Positions 1-27,993 of a stretch of DNA of 43,402 nt are shown piece after piece. The notes under the pieces were generated by a model that made no database searches, was not told the origin of the DNA, and worked only from the letters and a program-made list of their open reading frames with translations. The DNA comes from an uncultured Collinsella sp. (GTDB taxonomy: Bacteria; Actinomycetota; Coriobacteriia; Coriobacteriales; Coriobacteriaceae), in contig CABTZA010000001.1 of assembly GCA_902489225.1 (NCBI GenBank), forward strand, positions 1 through 43,402. The letters run 5' to 3'. The translations under genes and the position numbers were made by a program. Within the stretch, counting starts at the first letter, position 1, and each line of letters begins with the position of its first letter.

Positions 1-101
1 GCCGTCGCGAGGAAGCGGCTCAGGGCGATATACGCCGTGATGCGCGACCGGGTGCCCTACCGGGAGTAGCCCCGACGGTTGACAAAACTATAGGAACACC
101 C
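1..101 (+). mobile_element. 3' end of an IS110-family insertion sequence (transposase C-terminus 1-69, right end about 70-101); truncated by the window edge
   Basis: Frame 1 reads AVARKRLRAIYAVMRDRVPYRE* (stop 67-69), resembling the IS110 C-terminal 'A.ARKL...IYA.LRD..PY' pattern. It is followed by TTGACAAAACTATAGGAACACCC, similar to actinobacterial IS110 right ends. Only 22 residues are visible. Confidence 0.75.
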
Positions 102-135
102 AATGACTGGGTCGGAAAATTTCTTAAAAAAGTTC

Positions 136-163
136 TTGCCCTGAGCTGATTCGTCCGTATAAT
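136..163 (+). promoter_or_regulatory. Housekeeping-sigma promoter for the tRNA-Asn pair
   Basis: TTGCCC (136-141), 16-nt spacer, TATAAT (158-163), AT-rich upstream tract; 30 nt before the first tRNA. Confidence 0.8.
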
Positions 164-193
164 AAACTTCGTTGCTTGAGAGCACGCACCTAT

Positions 194-268
194 TCCTCGG
201 TAGCTCAATGGTAGAGCACGCGGCTGTTAACCGCGCTGTTGTAGGTTCGAGTCCTACCCGGGGAGCCA
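194..268 (+). tRNA. tRNA-Asn (GTT), CCA encoded
   Basis: Cloverleaf: acceptor TCCTCGG/CCGGGGA, anticodon arm CGCGG-CTGTTAA-CCGCG, T arm GTAGG-TTCGAGT-CCTAC, 3' GCCA. Confidence 0.98.
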
Positions 269-301
269 GAATTTTCCAGCCCTTTCCGTTGGGCTTTAAA
301 T

Positions 302-376
302 TCCTCGGTAGCTCAATGGTAGAGCACGCGGCTGTTAACCGCGCTGTTGTAGGTTCGAGTCCTACCCGGGGAGCCA
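302..376 (+). tRNA. tRNA-Asn (GTT), second identical copy
   Basis: Sequence identical to 194-268, separated by a 33-nt spacer. Confidence 0.98.
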
Positions 377-382
377 GGTTGT

Positions 383-412
383 AAAACCCGTCGCTTATGC
401 GGCGGGTTTTTT
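383..412 (+). terminator. Rho-independent terminator after the tRNA pair
   Basis: AAAACCCGTCGC-TTAT-GCGGCGGG-TTTTTT hairpin plus U tract. Confidence 0.85.
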
Positions 413-571
413 CATGCCGCGATCGCCGTTCGCGAACGTTACCATATCAACATTTCGTGTCGAGGATGTAATCCCGAGGCCCGCCACCTCAACATGCCGC
501 GGTCGTTGTAGAATATTGCAATGATTGCTCCCACGACATGGTGCCGCGAGCACCAAGAAAAGGAGATTCTT

Positions 572-928
572 GTGTCTGAGACCATTAACGGCAGCCTGAG
601 CGTCTCGAACGACGTTATTGCCGATATTGCCGGTTATGCCGCGATGACGTGCTATGGCGTTGTCGGTATGGCTGAGCAGCTCCAGGGCGCCGAGAGCGTG
701 CGCCTGCTTGCCGGTCAGCGCCTCCGCAAGGGCGTGCTTGTCTCCGCCGACGAGAACGGCCTTACGGTCGATCTTCACGTCGTGCTCGAGAACGGCGTCA
801 ACATGAAGTCCGTCTGCCACAATCTTTCGAGCTCCGTTGCCTTCACCCTGCAGGAGATCGCCCAGATCGATCCCGCCAGCCTTAAGATCGGCATCCATAT
901 CGACGCGCTCAAGAGCCGTCTGAACTAG
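572..928 (+). CDS. Asp23/Gls24 family protein (YloU-like)
   Basis: GTG start after AAGGAG. 'GSLSVSNDVIADIAGYAAMTCYGVVGM' motif. Directly upstream of a DAK2 gene, as in yloU-yloV. Confidence 0.9.
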   Translation: MSETINGSLSVSNDVIADIAGYAAMTCYGVVGMAEQLQGAESVRLLAGQRLRKGVLVSADENGLTVDLHVVLENGVNMKSVCHNLSSSVAFTLQEIAQIDPASLKIGIHIDALKSRLN

Positions 929-9525: not shown

Positions 9526-12500
9526 GTGTATCTCAAGTCCCTCACGCTCAAAGGGTTCAAGTCGTTTGCCGACCGCGCCCATATGACGTTTGAGCCGGGC
9601 CTGACCGTCATCGTCGGTCCAAACGGCTCGGGAAAATCGAACATCTCTGACTCGATTCTGTGGGTCCTGGGCGAGCAGAGCGCCAAGCAGCTGCGCGGCC
9701 AGGCCATGGAGGATGTCATCTTCTCGGGCTCGTCGGCGCGCAAGCCGGTGGGTGTCGCCGAGGTCACGCTGGTGCTCGATAACTCGGACCATATGTTGCC
9801 CGTCGACTTTGACGAGGTCGCCATCACCCGTCGCATGTATCGCTCGGGCGAAAGCGAGTACCTCATCAACTCGAGTCCGTGCCGCCTGATGGACATTCAG
9901 GACATCCTGCACGATTCGGGCCTGGGCAAGGATACGCATTCCATCATCAGCCAGGGCAAGCTCGACGCCATTTTGCAGAGCCGCCCCGAGGAGCGTCGCG
10001 CCCTCATCGAGGAGGCCGCCGGCATTTCCAAGCACAAGCGCCGCAAGGAGCGTGCGCTCAAAAAGATTAAGTCGATGGACGAGCACCTGACGCGTGCCCG
10101 CGACATCAATAAGGAAATCGCCCGTCAGCTGCGACCGCTGGAGCGTCAGGTCGATCGCGCGCGCAAGTACAAAGAGCTGTCCTCGCGCGCGAACGAGCTT
10201 ACGCAGATGCTGGCTGTCGATGAGCTTCGTTCGCTGCAGTCGCAGTGGAACGACCTGGAGAGCCGCTCCAAGGAAGGTGCTGCCGAGCTGGAGCTTGCGC
10301 AGTACCGCATGAGCGAAAAGGAGCGCGAGCTCGAGAAGCTCCAGGTTATGCTTGAGGAAAAGGGCCTGTTTGTGGGCGACCTGGGCGAGCAACGCCGTCA
10401 TATGCAAGATGTGGTCGGCCGCATTAACTCCGACATGCGCCTGCTCGAGGAAAAGGGCCACAACATGGTGTCGCGCCTGTCTGACATGCGCGGTCAGATT
10501 TCGAGCTCCGAGCATCAGCGTCGTCGCGTGGTCGAGGAGCTCGAGGACGCGCGTGCGCAGCTTGAGGAAGTGACCGGTGCGCATATGCAGGCCCAGGAGG
10601 ACGTTGACGCCGCTGGTCCTGCCGCCGCTGAGCTCCACGAGCGGCGCGTGGCGCTCGACAATCAGATTTCGCAGCTTACGCGTGAGCAGCGCGATGTGCA
10701 GCGTGTGGCTGATAACGCCGCGCTTGAGCTCGCCAAGGTGAAGGATTCCTTGAGCAATGCCGAGGTCGAGGACAACATGTATGCCTCGCGCCTGGAGCAG
10801 ATTGACGAGCAGCTCGAGGAGGTCACGGCCTCGCTCGAGAGCCGTCGCAACCGCGCCGAGGAGCTTGAGGGCGCTCTTGAGGAAGCGCGCCAGGCTCAGG
10901 TTGATGCGCGTGAGGCCACCGAGACGGCACGCGCGGCCCTGAAGGACCTGCGTGCCCGCGAGAGCGAGGCACGCAACAAGTTATCCGAGGTGCGCTCGGA
11001 GCTTGCCAGCCAAAAGAAACTCGATGCCCGCATGGCCGACAGCTCGCCGCTCGTGAGCCGTCTGATGGGTGCGCTGGGCGATGATGTCTCGGGTCGTTTG
11101 GGCGACGTGCTCGAGGCTCCTCGTGAGCTCGAAGGCCTGGTCGAGCAGCTGCTTGCCGGCGATATCGATGCTCTTTTGTTTGATGACGCCGCCACGCTTG
11201 AGCGTGCCGGTCGTGCGGCTCTGGACCAAAATAAGGCCTCGGGCGAGGCACTGCTGGTGGCGCGCGGCGTGAGCGGCTCTACCGCCGCTGTGGGCGCCTC
11301 CGGTACCCGTCTGGTTGATCGTCTGTCCGTGCGCGCAGGCTACGGACCCGTCGTCGAGGCGCTGCTCGGCGGCTATTACGTCGTGGACGATCTTTCTGCC
11401 GCGCTTTCGGCGCCGGTCGTTGACGGCGTGACTTACGTGACCCCCGATGGCGCCCGCGTCGCCTGCGGCGGCCTGGTGCGTGTGGGCCTCGATGCCGGCG
11501 AGGCGTCGGGTGCTCTGGAGCGTAAGCGTCGCATTCGCGAGCTGGAGGGGCTTGAGCCCGATTTGGCCGCTGTGTTTGAGCATGTGTCGGATCGGGTCGT
11601 CGAGGCCAACGCGGCCGTTGAGGAAGCGCGTGCCGCTGAGGACGATGCCGCCGGCGAGATCGCCCGTCTTGAGGGCGAGCGCCGCTCGCTGCTCTCCGAG
11701 ATCGGCCGCTTGGAGCAAAGCGCCAACAATGCCGAGGTCGAGCGCGTGCGCATCTCCAAGCGTCGCGAGCAGGCCTCCGAAGCCGTTCGCGCTGCGCGCC
11801 CGCGGGTTGATGAGCTCACCCGTTCGCGTGACGAGGCCCGCGCGCAGGCAAGCGATCTGAGCTTGCAGATTGCCGAGGCCAACGACGAACTCGACCGCGT
11901 TCGCCGTGACGATTCCGAGGCCGCCGGCAAGCTCGCCGACGCCAAGGTTCGCCTAGCCCAGACGAGCGAGCGCCTGCGTTCGCTGAAGGGTCGCGTGCCC
12001 GACCTGGAGCATCGTCTTGAGGGCATCGACCGTCGTATCCGCGGAACACGCCAGGCCTCGCGCTCACTCGAGCTGCTGCGTCTGCGCGTCGACCCCATGC
12101 ACGAGCGCTATTCGGCCCTGCTGGAGCGCGCATCGGATTGGGCAGCGCGCTTGCGTGACCAGGCCTCTCTGGAGGAGGCGGACTCCGCTTCGCTCAAGAA
12201 GACCATCGAGGATGCCAAGGCGGAGGTTGCCCGCGCTAAGGAGCGGGTCGATACCGCCTCCGCCACGCAAAACGAGTTCAAGGTCGCGCGTGGTAAGCTC
12301 GAGGTGCAGGTAGAGGCCGCCATTAAGGCCATTACCGCCGATGGCACCACGGTGCTCGAGGAAGCGCTCATGCTTCCGGCTCCCACCGACCGCGACGCCG
12401 CCGAGCGCGAGCTCAACCAGCTTGTGCGCCAGATCAACAACCTTGGTCCCGTTAACCAAGTTGCCATGGAGGAGTACGAGCAGCTCAAGCGCCGCGCCGA

Positions 12501-19144: not shown

Positions 19145-20494
19145 GTGGCTAAGAAATCTACGGCTATCGATGTAACGCAAGGAGTCATTTGGCAGCAATT
19201 GCTGTCGCTGTGCGTTCCCATCTTTTTTAGTTCGTTTTTTCAGCAGGCCTACACGCTTATCGGTACCTATATCGTCGGTCAGTTTGGCGGCAAGCTCGCG
19301 CTAGGTGGCATTCAAGCTACGATGGTGCTCACCGAGCTCTGCATTGGCTTTTGCGTTGGCGTCGGCGCCGGCTGCGCGGTCATTACCGGTCAGTATTTTG
19401 GTCAGCACGATGATGAGCGACTGAGCCGTTCGGTCCATACGGCCATGACGCTCGCGCTGGTGGGCGGTATCGTTTTCTCGATTCTTGGCATAGTGTTCGT
19501 TGAGCCCATGCTGGTACTTATGAACACTCCGCATGAACTTTTGGCCGAGGGCGTGGCCTATGCTCGTTGCTATTTTGCCGCCATGGTTGCGGCGCTGCTG
19601 CTCAATATGGGAACGGCACTGCTACGCGCCGTGGGCGACACGCGCGGGCCTGCTGTGATCATCGCTTCCGGCTGCCTTGTTAATGCGGTGCTGGATGTCA
19701 TCTTTGTTGCCGTGCTTCATATGGAGGCGCTGGGCTGCGGCATCGCGGTGGCGCTGACCATTTGCTCCAACGCCACGATGATCGTGATTCGCATGATGCA
19801 CGCACCGGGTGCGTGGCGGCTTTCGCTGTCCAAACTCGGCATTGATCCTGGCATTTGTAAGAGCATGATCTCGTGTGGTCTGCCGCTTGGCTTTCAGTCT
19901 GCTGCGTATTCGATTTCCAACGTTTTGATTCAGGTGTCGGTCAACTCGTTTGGTGCCGATGTCACCACGGCGTGGGGTCTTTCGGGCCGCTTAGATGGCA
20001 TTATCTGGATGGTGACCGAGGCGCTCGGCGTATCGATCACTACGTTCTCGGCGCAGAACTTTGGCGCGCGCAACTACGAGCGCATGCGCAAGGGTTACCA
20101 TACGTCGCTTGTGCTTTCGTTTATGCTCATTGGTGGCCTGTCTGCCGTGCTCCTGGTGTTCTCGGGCCCGCTGTCGCGTTTGTTTGTCGACGATGCTTCG
20201 ATTTCGGCGTACACCACGACGATTCTTCATTTCATCGCGCCGTTCTACGCGATCTTCTCTATTATCGAAAACGCGTCGGGCTCCATTCGCGGTGCCGGCG
20301 TGAGTCTGCAGCCTATGATGCTCACCATCTTTGGCACCGTTGTCTTGAGGGTGATCTGGGTGTTTGCGATCATGCCCTTCGATCCGTCGCTCGAGCATCT
20401 ACTGCTGGTCTACCCCGTAACCTGGCTCATCACGGCCACGATGTTTACCATCTACCACCACAGCGGCAACTGGCTCGGCCGCGCCACCGCCTAG
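19145..20494 (+). CDS. MATE family efflux transporter
   Basis: About 12 hydrophobic segments; 'LLRAVGDTRGP', 'AQNFGARNYER', 'IRGAG'. GTG start after GGAGG. Confidence 0.92.
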   Translation: MAKKSTAIDVTQGVIWQQLLSLCVPIFFSSFFQQAYTLIGTYIVGQFGGKLALGGIQATMVLTELCIGFCVGVGAGCAVITGQYFGQHDDERLSRSVHTAMTLALVGGIVFSILGIVFVEPMLVLMNTPHELLAEGVAYARCYFAAMVAALLLNMGTALLRAVGDTRGPAVIIASGCLVNAVLDVIFVAVLHMEALGCGIAVALTICSNATMIVIRMMHAPGAWRLSLSKLGIDPGICKSMISCGLPLGFQSAAYSISNVLIQVSVNSFGADVTTAWGLSGRLDGIIWMVTEALGVSITTFSAQNFGARNYERMRKGYHTSLVLSFMLIGGLSAVLLVFSGPLSRLFVDDASISAYTTTILHFIAPFYAIFSIIENASGSIRGAGVSLQPMMLTIFGTVVLRVIWVFAIMPFDPSLEHLLLVYPVTWLITATMFTIYHHSGNWLGRATA

Positions 20495-20520
20495 CCATTC
20501 GGGACGTCCCCAATGGCTAG
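20491..20520. repeat. REP-like palindrome (GGGGAC family, type A); possible bidirectional terminator
   Basis: CTAGCCATTCGGGACGTCCCCAATGGCTAG, near-perfect inverted repeat overlapping the stop codons of both convergent genes. Confidence 0.7.
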
Positions 20521-25135: not shown

Positions 25136-27940
25136 GTGGCAAACGAGTACAAGCAGACGATGAATCTGCCCAAGACCGGTTTTCCCATGCGTGCCGGTCT
25201 TTCCAAGTCTGAGCCCAAGCGACTCAAGGACTGGCAGGACAACAAGGTCTACGAGCAGGTTCTGAAGAAGAACGAGGGTCACAAGAAGTTCGTGCTGCAC
25301 GACGGTCCTCCGTACGCCAACGGTCCGATCCACATCGGCCATGCCATGAACAAGATCTCCAAGGACATGATCAACCGTTACTGGATGATGCAGGGCTGCG
25401 AAGTTCCCTATGTCCCCGGTTGGGACTGCCACGGTCAGCCGATCGAGCACAAGGTCGAGGAAAAGCTCGGCACCGAGAAGTTCAACCAGACCTCCACGGC
25501 CAAGATCCGCGAGCTTTGCAACGAGTTCGCTGTCGAGAACATCGAGCTCCAGAAGGCGGGCTTCCGTCGCTTGGGCGTGCTTGGCGACTGGGACAACCCG
25601 TATCTGACGCTCTATCACCAGCACGACGCCGCCGACATCGAGGTCTTCAAGGCCATGTTCGATAAGGGCATGATCTATCGCGGTCACAAGCCGGTTCACT
25701 GGTGCAAGCACTGCCACACCGCGCTGGCCGAGGCCGAGATCGAGTACTCCGACGAGACGAGCCCGTCCATTTTCGTGCGCTTCGAGATGACTTCCAAGCC
25801 CGCCGGCCTCGAGAACTTCGACGGCCCGGTCGACTTTATCATCTGGACGACCACGCCGTGGACCATCCCCTCTGACCAGGCCGTTTCCCTTAAGCCCGGC
25901 GCCGCCTATGTCGCCGTTGAGCACGATGGCCGTGCCGAGGTCATGCTCGAGGACCTGGCTCCCAAGTGCTGCGAGGAGTTTGGCTGGGAGTACACCCCGG
26001 TCATGGTCGACGGCGAGCCCTATGTGGTTCCCGCCGAGACGTTCCACCACATCCACTACAAGCAGCCGATCTTTGACGGTGTTGAGGGTGTGGCGCTCCT
26101 GGCCGACTACGTCGGTGTCGATGACGGTACCGGTATCGTCCACAACTCGCCCGGCCACGGCGTGGACGACTACTTCGCCTGCCTCAAGGAAGGCATCACC
26201 GACATCTGCATGCCGGTTGATGACGACGGCAAGTTCTACACCGGCGAGGAGTTTGGCACCGGTGGTCCCTTCAGCGGTATGGATACCGATGAGGCCAACC
26301 CGCAAATCATCGAGTTCCTGCGCGAGCGCGGCACCCTGGTTCTCGAGAAGAAGATCACGCACAGCTATCCGCACTGCTGGCGCTGCAAGCACCCGGTGCT
26401 CTTCCGTGCCACCGACCAGTGGTTTGTCTCGATGGACAAGACCGGTTTGCGCGAGCAGGCTGCCAAAGAGGTCCGTGAGAACGTCAAGTGGTATCCGGCC
26501 CACGCGGCCAACCGCATCGGCGCCATGGTCGAGCAGCGTCCCGACTGGTGCATCAGCCGTCAGCGCAACTGGGGCGTGCCTATCCCCAGCTACACCTGCG
26601 CCGACTGCGGCGAGAAGGTCATGAACGACGCTACGCTCGACGCCGTCATCAAGCTCTTCCACGAGAAAGGCTCTGACGCCTGGTTCACCGACGCTCCCGA
26701 GAGCTACCTGGGCGAGGCCTGCGTCTGCCCCAAGTGCGGTGGCCATCACCTCAAGGCCGATAAGGACATCCTCGACGTGTGGTGGGACTCCGGCGTCTCC
26801 TGGAAGGCCGTCTGCGAGTATCGCCCCGAGCTGGAGTACCCGGCGGATGTGTACCTCGAGGGCTCCGACCAGCACCGCGGTTGGTTCCAGAGCTCGCTGC
26901 TCACCTCGGTGGGTGCCAACGGCCACGCTCCGTACAAGGCAGTCGTCTCGCAGGGCTTCACGCTCGCCGGCCAGGGCCGCAAGATGTCCAAGTCGCTCGG
27001 CAACGTCATCGACCCCAACAAGGTCTGTGACGAGATGGGCGCCGACATCATCCGCCTGTGGGTCGCCTCGGTCGACACCAGCTCTGACGTTTCCATCGAC
27101 CACGAGATTCTCGCCCGTACGTCCGATGCCTACCGTCGTTTCCGCAACACGTTGCGCTTCCTGCTCTCCGAGCTCGAGGGCCAGTTTGAGCCCGAGACCG
27201 ACGGTGTCGCCTTTGCCGACCTGCTGCCGCTCGACAAGCTCATGGTTGCCCGTCTGACCCAGGTCCAGGCCGAGGTCGACGACGCCTACGCCAGCTACGA
27301 GTTCCCGCGCGCCTACCGTGCACTCTATGACTTCGTGGTTACCGAGCTCTCCAACGTGTACCTCGACGCCCTGAAGGACCGTCTGTACTGCGAGAAGCCC
27401 GGCTCGCTCGAGCGCCGCAGCGCCCAGACCGTGCTTGCCGAGCTCTTCTCGATGCTCATGCGCGACCTGCAGCCGATCCTGTCCTACACGGTCGACGAGG
27501 CCATGGCCTATGCGCCCGCCGGCTGCGTCGATCACCAGAAGTACGCCGCGCTGCTCGATTGGTACAAGTCGCCCATTACTGTCGACGAGGCCAATGAGTT
27601 TGAGGGCGTGCTCGAGGCTTCGCTCGAGCTTCGTAGCGCCGTGACCAAGGCCCTTGAGGATGCCCGCTCCGCCGGCACCTTCACTAAGAGCCAGCAGGTC
27701 CGCGTCAAGGCGGTCGTTCCCGCCGAGATGTACGCGCTACTGACCGGCGACAAGGCCGTCGACCTGGCCGAGTTCTACATCGTCTCTGATGTTGAGCTGA
27801 CCCAGGGCGAGGAGCTTTCCGTTGCCATCGAGGCTGCCGAGGGCGAGTGCTGCGACCGTTGCTGGAACTACCGCACCACCGTCGGCGAGTACAACGGCCA
27901 CGCACATATCTGCAAGCGCTGCGCGGAGGCGCTGAACTAG
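25136..27940 (+). CDS. ileS: Isoleucine--tRNA ligase (type 1)
   Basis: 'LHDGPPYANGPIHIGH', 'GWDCHG', 'WCISRQR', 'EGSDQHRGWF', 'KMSKS', C-terminal Zn finger 'CDRCW...CKRC'. GTG start 25136. Confidence 0.98.
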   Translation: MANEYKQTMNLPKTGFPMRAGLSKSEPKRLKDWQDNKVYEQVLKKNEGHKKFVLHDGPPYANGPIHIGHAMNKISKDMINRYWMMQGCEVPYVPGWDCHGQPIEHKVEEKLGTEKFNQTSTAKIRELCNEFAVENIELQKAGFRRLGVLGDWDNPYLTLYHQHDAADIEVFKAMFDKGMIYRGHKPVHWCKHCHTALAEAEIEYSDETSPSIFVRFEMTSKPAGLENFDGPVDFIIWTTTPWTIPSDQAVSLKPGAAYVAVEHDGRAEVMLEDLAPKCCEEFGWEYTPVMVDGEPYVVPAETFHHIHYKQPIFDGVEGVALLADYVGVDDGTGIVHNSPGHGVDDYFACLKEGITDICMPVDDDGKFYTGEEFGTGGPFSGMDTDEANPQIIEFLRERGTLVLEKKITHSYPHCWRCKHPVLFRATDQWFVSMDKTGLREQAAKEVRENVKWYPAHAANRIGAMVEQRPDWCISRQRNWGVPIPSYTCADCGEKVMNDATLDAVIKLFHEKGSDAWFTDAPESYLGEACVCPKCGGHHLKADKDILDVWWDSGVSWKAVCEYRPELEYPADVYLEGSDQHRGWFQSSLLTSVGANGHAPYKAVVSQGFTLAGQGRKMSKSLGNVIDPNKVCDEMGADIIRLWVASVDTSSDVSIDHEILARTSDAYRRFRNTLRFLLSELEGQFEPETDGVAFADLLPLDKLMVARLTQVQAEVDDAYASYEFPRAYRALYDFVVTELSNVYLDALKDRLYCEKPGSLERRSAQTVLAELFSMLMRDLQPILSYTVDEAMAYAPAGCVDHQKYAALLDWYKSPITVDEANEFEGVLEASLELRSAVTKALEDARSAGTFTKSQQVRVKAVVPAEMYALLTGDKAVDLAEFYIVSDVELTQGEELSVAIEAAEGECCDRCWNYRTTVGEYNGHAHICKRCAEALN

Positions 27941-27993
27941 TCGTTGGGGACGTTCTTAAATGACTAGTCAAACAAGAACGTCTCCATTGACTA
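27938..27993. repeat. Inverted doublet of a 29-bp REP-like unit (GGGGAC family, type A)
   Basis: TAGTCGTTGGGGACGTTCTTAAATGACTA, followed (sharing TA) by the reverse complement of TAGTCAATGGAGACGTTCTTGTTTGACTA. Confidence 0.8.

Follow-up and report, generated by a model that had tools for sequence, protein, structure and literature searches.

The first 98 nt of the window (the whole 43,402-nt stretch of DNA analysed, which is the start of contig C1 of the source genome G000; 272 contigs, 1.92 Mb) are the right end of a probably RNA-guided IS110-family element, and the contig breaks inside this element. The element, referred to here as type A, is very probably a Collinsella insertion sequence (IS) of the IS110 group that inserts site-specifically in a host REP-like repeat by way of a bridge RNA, as judged by comparing the sequences of the element, its relatives and their targets. 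REP-targeting, RNA-guided IS110 elements would thereby be extended to a Gram-positive gut actinobacterium.

Positions 1..69 (forward strand) carry the 3' end of the IS110-family recombinase gene, comprising the last 22 codons (AVARKRLRAIYAVMRDRVPYRE) plus TAG. The gene is truncated by the contig start, and full copies have the same C-terminus on their 377-aa ORF. The right non-coding end of the IS follows on the same strand at 70..98 (29-30 nt, ending ...ACTATAGGAACA), and homology to relatives stops at 98/99. Inside this end lie a -35-like hexamer, TTGACA (79-84, forward strand), and ATAGGAA (90-96, forward strand), with a match to the left-end RNA at its left-donor-guide position. Over positions 61-110 the sequence reads ...GAGTAGCCCCGACGGTTGACAAAACTATAGGAACA/CCCAATGACTGG, with the slash (here and below) between IS end and host flank or at the insertion point; that is, ...GGTTGACAAAACTATAGGAACA up to position 98, then CCCAATGACTGGGTCGG. 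The same terminus as at position 98 is found on contig C113 and in 99 right-junction instances (loci L034-L143). The original prediction of an IS110 right end at the window start, inserted in a repeat, is thus confirmed, with the boundary at 98/99. Beyond it, positions 99..108 (forward strand) are the remaining arm of the interrupted REP-like repeat (CCCAATGACT), as seen from repeat copies and empty alleles. The first base of the arm, at 99..99 on the forward strand, is the putative crossover C, the only nucleotide common to both junctions of the inserted copy, and 99..105 (forward strand) form the right half-target CCCAATG, complementary to the loop segment CGUUGGG with a G:T wobble at 104. 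The insertion point lies 37 nt upstream of a sigma-70-like promoter, TTGCCC-16-TATAAT (136..163, forward strand), which is left intact and belongs to a pair of tRNA-Asn genes behind it (194-268 and 302-376). These tandem tRNA-Asn(GTT) genes are identical, stand 33 nt apart and are followed by a terminator-like hairpin at 391-405 (window 194-405).

Window positions 1-600 matched 144/149 genomes of the genus, and most of the best rows begin at query 99 or 100. Loci from 29 related genomes were aligned, of which 27 contain the downstream anchor and were scored. This IS is absent from the tRNA-Asn site in all 27 anchored loci. In 18 of them the site is empty and reads ...AAGAACGTC/CCCAAYGAYT, upstream of tRNA-Asn; in longer form the same 18 loci read ...TAGTCRTTGGGGACGTTCTTGAATGACTRGTCGTTTAAGAACGTC/CCCAAYGAYT followed by RGGTCGG, with GTC directly before CCCAAYGAYT. 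The remaining nine have a near-variant arm (5 loci), a different element (3) or an unlike sequence (1). As the alignments of the relatives start at 99/100 and the empty sites hold the repeat, window 99-108 is host DNA. Both the earlier assignment of 99-108 to a repeat arm and the expectation that empty-site alleles would restore the repeat ...GTCCCCAATGACT are therefore borne out, the latter in 18/27 loci. The left junction of the window copy was found at the end of contig C19 of the same genome (...GTCGTTTAAGAACGTCC/ATTACAGTCGAAATTG; by consensus flank, ...AAGAACGTCC/ATTACAG), and the flank on C19 matches, at 98% identity over 801 nt, the DNA upstream of L005's empty site. On C113 lies a second copy of this end, with 99% identity over window 1-108. 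C239 carries a related end that has only its last 24 nt in common with the window end. Further left junctions are found at the ends of C79 and C184, so that G000 has at least three copies. The element accounts for contig breaks in these assemblies.

The three loci with a different element (L008, L013 and L029) carry a multi-copy sequence 1-2 nt from the same repeat point, upstream of tRNA-Asn. This sequence terminates in ...GGTGTTCGGATAAAGTCGATAATCAAG, with a perfect subterminal hairpin (CACATTCATCCG...CGGATGAATGTG), and further copies of it are present in L157-L168. It was considered as a second repeat-targeting IS and rejected, as the right flanks of its other copies are unrelated.

The target was defined from pooled loci (L034-L143) with 85 left and 99 right junction instances, giving 57 and 82 unique 30-nt flanks, respectively, and 72 unique flank pairs; 55 of the unique left flanks are N-free. 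Over the 72 distinct insertion sites the consensus flanks are ...AAGAACGTCC/CCCAAYGACTA. Counted from -1 back, the left flanks (n=57) are C57 C56 T56 G54 C53 A53 A50 G52 A48 A52; GAACGTCC is thus fitted by about 50-57/57 unique left flanks per position, with the A's at -9/-10 at 48 and 52. From +1, the right flanks (n=82) are C82 C82 C80 A82 A82 Y(T49/C32) G75 A68 C78 T68 A67, and 69/82 match CCCAAYGACTA with at most one mismatch. The canonical arm AGTCRTTHAAGAACGTCC is found with at most two mismatches in 43/55 N-free left flanks. About 8/55 left flanks lie outside any repeat copy and still carry GGAAYGTCC, such sites keeping GGAAYGTCC/CCYAAC. The target consensus, AAGAACGTC-C-CCAAYG(ACTA), is strict, and the 72 unique flank pairs place other copies of the element in the same repeat at the same point, as had been anticipated.

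Inside the window, the 13-mer GTCCCCAATGACT has 16 matches with at most three mismatches, against a shuffle mean of 8.5 (0/100 shuffles reach 16), an enrichment that is weak by itself. To that extent the window alone would allow the 10-nt likeness at 99-108 to be chance, with an IS that inserts without sequence preference, a caveat raised in the original prediction. This reading has next to no probability and is refuted by the pooled flanks: right flanks begin with CCCA in 80/82 cases and with exactly CCCAAYG in 75/82, and GAACGTCC is near-uniform on the left.

In the whole of G000 (1.92 Mb) the 13-mer occurs in 25 exact, 26 one-mismatch and 35 two-mismatch copies. The repeat unit is roughly 27 nt long (AGTCRTTTAAGAAC-GTCCCCAAYGACT), occurs as inverted pairs and tandems, and is intergenic in the examples viewed. 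At window 20493..20518 the repeat family has a compact, palindromic member (AGCCATTCGGGAC/GTCCCCAATGGCT), which is an inexact near-target. Unoccupied exact copies of GAACGTCCCCAAYG number 27 in G000, compared with 0.04 expected from composition, and constitute 27 further potential landing sites for the element. One of these 27, an exact 14-nt guide-matching target (GAACGTCCCCAACG), lies at window 27942..27955 (reverse strand), within a REP-like hairpin at 27938-27993.

In REP/REPIN-RAYT systems a genome carries tens of copies of a short palindromic repeat, and a single-copy Y1-transposase-like gene has inverted copies of the repeat on both sides. The Collinsella repeat is likewise accompanied by a single-copy Y1-transposase-like gene, of 263 aa, that is conserved in the genus; in 7/7 loci, 2-3 repeat cores flank it on either side, those of the two sides being oppositely oriented. 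This RAYT-like gene is located at G000 C91:1-444 and L175:1153-1944 (reverse strand), flanked by inverted GTCCCCAATGAG-type repeats. Its product matches PF01797 (Y1_Tnp) with 30.5 bits (cut-off 23). With NF047646 (REP-associated tyrosine transposase) it scores 54.9 bits, below the cut-off of 80, and in this, as in its host in Coriobacteriia, it differs from the known systems. The 263-aa query matched 38/40 other genomes of the genus; 24 rows cover the full length at 93-98% identity, the remainder being paralogues or fragments. Two other Y1_Tnp matches in G000 are on C174 and C23. As the RAYT-like gene sits between inverted repeat copies, the repeat appears REP-like, and repeat and gene together look like a REP/RAYT system. 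Searches of the literature on RAYT/REPIN in Collinsella, Coriobacteriia or Actinobacteria, and on IS110 in Collinsella, found nothing relevant. Collinsella would thus gain a REP/RAYT-like repeat system, and neither this nor a REP-targeting IS110 in Collinsella was found in print.

An alternative is that CCCAAYGACT is part of the element, or that the repeat is debris of IS ends, in which case no independent repeat would be targeted. The C113 copy, which matches 108 window bases at 99% and thus continues past position 98, could be read in this way. However, the empty sites of relatives already contain the full repeat, which refutes this explanation, and the flanks diverge after about 11 nt. In addition, the repeat is unlike the IS beyond a 9-nt loop segment, it flanks the RAYT-like gene as inverted pairs (7/7 loci), and the 27 exact targets in G000 are unoccupied. 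The probability left to it is very small, and a host repeat targeted by the IS is preferred.

Full type A copies are 1411-1413 bp long in 78/81 instances with both flanks, and run from ATTACAGTCGAAATTG to GTTGACAAAACTATAGGAACA. They consist of a 248-nt left non-coding end, the 377-aa ORF and the right end of 29-30 nt; the termini, ATTACAG... and ...GGAACA, are not inverted repeats. The ORF matches PF01548 over the full length of the domain (residues 1-155, E 3.4e-33), PF02371 (5.6e-22) and the NCBIfam model NF033542, 'IS110 family RNA-guided transposase' (199.4 bits, cut-off 140), in agreement with the earlier expectation that the upstream ORF is a DEDD IS110 recombinase. In a phmmer comparison with solved structures, the C-terminal domain alone aligns to IS621 (8wt6, E 8.4e-8). 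The Ser of the element's SSG motif aligns with that of the ESG of IS621, and positions of the D..D..D motif were assigned by eye. By these sequence matches the type A recombinase is classified as a DEDD/Ser enzyme of the IS110 group. IS621 of E. coli, also of the IS110 group, similarly has a DEDD plus Ser recombinase, a long left and a short right end and no terminal inverted repeats; its recombinase is only distantly alike, and its host phylum and target sequence are other. In public records, 485 relatives were confirmed with tblastn, the best 80 of the 485 at 98-100% identity, and named records place the element in Collinsella, including C. aerofaciens. A 99%-identical copy is also present in a metagenome-assembled record labelled Alloprevotella sp. 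(L114, CAVGCW010000028.1).

The 248-nt left end is predicted to fold into two internal loops. On one side of the first loop is GAACGUCCC (element nt 92-100), whose sense is that of target positions 1-9; on its other side is CGUUGGG (nt 116-122), the complement of CCCAACG, target positions 8-14. Together the two segments, which are separated by a conserved GCCC...GGGC hairpin, spell the repeat consensus GAACGTC-CC-CAACG. TG after the guide segments complements the donor CA at window 97-98. In the IS621 bridge RNA, the left target guide is described as having the sense of the top strand, covering left target plus core (Durrant 2024, PMC11208160); the target guides are numbered as positions 1-9 and 8-11(14), and the right guide is followed by two 'handshake' nucleotides, whose partners are donor positions 6-7 (Hiraizumi 2024, PMC11208158). 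The predicted type A RNA resembles it in having two internal loops in a left-end RNA, a 9-nt segment in the sense of positions 1-9 together with a segment complementary to positions 8-14, and, behind the right target guide, two nucleotides with pairing to donor positions 6-7. Unlike in IS621, the right target guide is natively 7 nt.

The match GAACGTCCC at nt 92-100 is the sole one of at least 7 nt between the 1411-bp element and the 26-nt empty-site stretch. Among shuffled left ends, a 9-nt sense match occurs in 127/20000, and both guide matches occur together in 27/20000 for the C variant of the target; the T variant has a 5-nt exact antisense match only. Taken alone, the guide match is moderately significant. 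The second loop, a candidate donor-binding loop, carries AUAGGAA (nt 159-165), matching the right end (window 90-96), and GGUAAUG(UG), equivalent to GGTAATGTG (nt 189-197), the complement of CACATTACC; GGUAAUGUG complements CACATTACC, in which one C connects the right end with the left end. At the left-donor-guide position the match covers donor positions -1 to 5; the guide is shifted in register from its IS621 counterpart, and donor positions 6-8 stay unpaired. A further difference is that, behind the right donor guide, the next two nucleotides match the donor and not the target.

The stems closing both loops pair in 105/105 cells (7 sequences from 4 element types), with 3 compensatory pairs, and pairing falls to 33-67% when the partners are slid. 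From these few, related sequences, stem conservation is supportive of the loop architecture, not decisive. A single molecule folds modestly better than shuffles (z -1.97). The minimum free energy (MFE) fold of a single sequence was dropped as a model, as it pairs the two guide segments with each other, owing to the complementarity of AACG and CGUU. A scan of the whole element and flanks against Rfam 15, with E up to 1, gave no match, which shows only that no matching family stands in Rfam 15. With sequences in the first predicted loop matching both half-targets, the left non-coding end appears to carry guides for the repeat, as suggested in the original prediction, and a bridge RNA programmed against the host GGGGAC repeat is supported by these loop and target matches.

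Loop and target also vary together among sibling elements, of which four types, A included, were sampled for the comparison of loop and protein. The sibling types keep the left-end start ATTACAGT..., and their right-end termini are near-identical (ATAGGAACA, ATAGAGACA or ATAGCGACA). The loop GUCUGCCCC with CGGGGGG is found in types B and D, whose flanks are ..YGCCC/CCCCCC; type B is represented by 5 full copies plus C21 and C239 in G000 (loop GTCTGCCCC with CGGGGGG). Type C has the loop GUCAGCCCC with CGGGACG (GTCAGCCCC with CGGGACG) and flanks ..AGCCCC/CGTCCC, its right flanks beginning with CGTCCC in 14/14 cases. In type C the donor side co-varies as well (right end ATAGAGACA, second loop GATAGAGAT), with ATAGGAA changed to ATAGAGA in right end and second loop alike. 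The recombinase of type D, which is represented by one copy, shares 86% identity with that of C and 52% with that of B. Type D carries the loop and the target of B, and a type B copy has exactly the same left flank. As type D combines a C-like protein with the loop and target of B, target choice seems to follow the RNA loop and not the protein. The four types thus amount to a natural swap experiment that supports loop-encoded specificity without a bench test. One chromosomal site, with an identical 30-nt left flank in L149 (G077) and L150 (G061), carries a type B element in one of these genomes and a type D element in the other. The target of type C is another palindromic repeat, GTAGYYAAAAWAGCCCC/GTCCCAAAWKAGCTAC (L151, L152, L199-L210), with sites in G000 on C239 (~386-430), C59, C63 and C212. 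This suggests two host repeat families, each used by its own re-programmed IS.

RNA guidance is predicted here, and the recombinase or a host factor may instead read the REP hairpin as DNA sequence or structure, the loop complementarity being incidental or auxiliary. Most sites do lie in the hairpin-forming repeat, as seen in the 43/55 left flanks that fit AGTCRTTHAAGAACGTCC with at most two mismatches, and a preprint on ISPpu10 (2026) proposes a combined sequence-and-structure match for REP targeting. However, the roughly 8/55 left flanks outside the repeat keep the guide-covered bases, siblings land in targets that match their own loops, and type D pairs a C-like protein (86%) with the loop and target of B. 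Hairpin reading is accordingly regarded as improbable, and guidance by a bridge RNA is retained as the preferred explanation.

The circle, promoter, bridge RNA and strand exchange that this explanation calls for are proposed by homology with IS621. The element would excise as a circle joined as GGAACA-C-ATTACAG. The circle junction would create a promoter, TTGACA-17-TACAGT, from the hexamer at window 79-84 and TACAGT of the left end with one C between them. A circle-junction promoter is described for IS621 (PMC11208160, section 5), and in both elements the right-end -35 would meet the left-end -10 in the circle. The putative junction promoter would transcribe the left end into the bridge RNA, one loop of which would pair with both strands of the repeat and the other with the element's joined ends, and the recombinase would then exchange strands at the shared C. 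Opposite Y, the G in CGUUGGG could pair with C or wobble with T, which would explain the use of both repeat variants.

The crossover point can be placed by comparing filled and empty sites. The filled site is GTCC/IS/CCCAA (2+3 C) and the empty site is GTCCCCAA (4 C). Four C's are present in every repeat copy counted (45/45 in G000, 47/47 in loci), and a 3-C variant of the repeat was found in 0/59 copies in G000 and 0/47 in fetched loci. With four C's in the repeat and 2+3 at the junctions, the two junctions have exactly one C in common, so that GGAACA-C-ATTACAG is the only sequence possible for the joined ends. A 2-nt CC core and a 3-C target were both rejected as models; no 3-C variant exists among the copies counted. 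Unique left junctions are ..CC/AT in 54/55 cases and right junctions A/CCCA in 80/82, and none of the alternative forms expected of a mismatched 2-nt core is present among the 55 left and 82 right junctions. The single-C overlap is also seen in type C, in two orthologous filled/empty pairs (C239:400 of G000 with L201, and C150 with L203), in which the target has G, and the donor A, at position 9. Across three differently programmed siblings, position 9 is A in the donor and C, C or G in the targets. IS621 differs in having a CT dinucleotide flanking both ends, where type A has one shared C; position 9 of IS621 is the near-invariant T of this CT core, whereas in type A the donor has A at this position, unlike the target (C; G in type C). 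Recombination had been predicted at a C-run core at 99-101: the C run holds, with the crossover at window 99, whereas a core of 2-3 nt does not, since one C is shared.

A search of 397 genomes for a right end joined to a left end through 0-4 nt gave one match, with exactly one C (L184:1440-1640, G102:C37). It consists of a type B element followed by a left-end remnant of ~105 nt that breaks off before TCCCCCC. The junction was rejected as a circle, the type B element being chromosomal and the left-end remnant truncated; it is a rearranged tandem or half-site product. In four sequencing runs searched over L038:447-2057 (all contigs), the circle joint was not found.

Tentatively, the Collinsella clade may exchange strands at the single shared C, with a cleavage geometry shifted relative to IS621 and almost no core constraint, a proposal drawn from the junctions that is somewhat more doubtful than not. 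If true, this would be a natural system whose re-programming has already covered a REP, a poly-C tract and another repeat. A single-C crossover would, if mechanistic, matter for the freedom with which bridge recombinases can be programmed. The number of bases shared by IS end and target varies within these families, for example 4 bp for ISEc11, and in IS492 one copy of an adjacent duplication is part of the IS, according to the account in Siddiquee 2024 (PMC11187229). The single C is thus rated as a variant and not as a new principle. The preprint 10.1101/2025.10.25.684509 is without any mention of core, dinucleotide or REP.

The independence of the Collinsella system, as originally predicted, is a fair claim for the phylum, Actinomycetota. 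As a mode of targeting it is not new: insertion of IS110 elements in REPs, and its RNA basis, are already published for IS621 and ISPpu9/ISPpu10, and are recurrent. A REP-type host repeat is the reported natural target of IS621 (Choi 2003), as it is of type A. ISPpu9 and ISPpu10 of Pseudomonas putida are described as IS110-family elements in REP sequences (PMC12288879; bioRxiv 10.64898/2026.03.19.712850), and like type A they are multi-copy, with every copy at one point of the host REP. By these descriptions they are set apart by their proteobacterial hosts and unrelated repeat sequences. Elements of the IS1111 group with a seekRNA show RNA-guided DEDD transposition to a specific site (Siddiquee 2024), and here too the length of the shared bases is variable between elements. 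In that group, as described, the guide RNA is downstream of the gene and there are subterminal inverted repeats, whereas in type A the long end is upstream (248 vs 30 nt).

A more distant IS110-family element is also present in G000, at C48:~10280-11146 (L002, L185; PF01548, 41 bits). Its left end starts near TTAAGGACTGTTCCAAGCTGCC, and homology to relatives begins at about C48:10280. In C88 and L063 the TTAAGGACTGTTCCAAGCTGCC motif stands directly after the GTCCCCAATGACTA arm, suggesting that the C48 element may also land beside the repeat.
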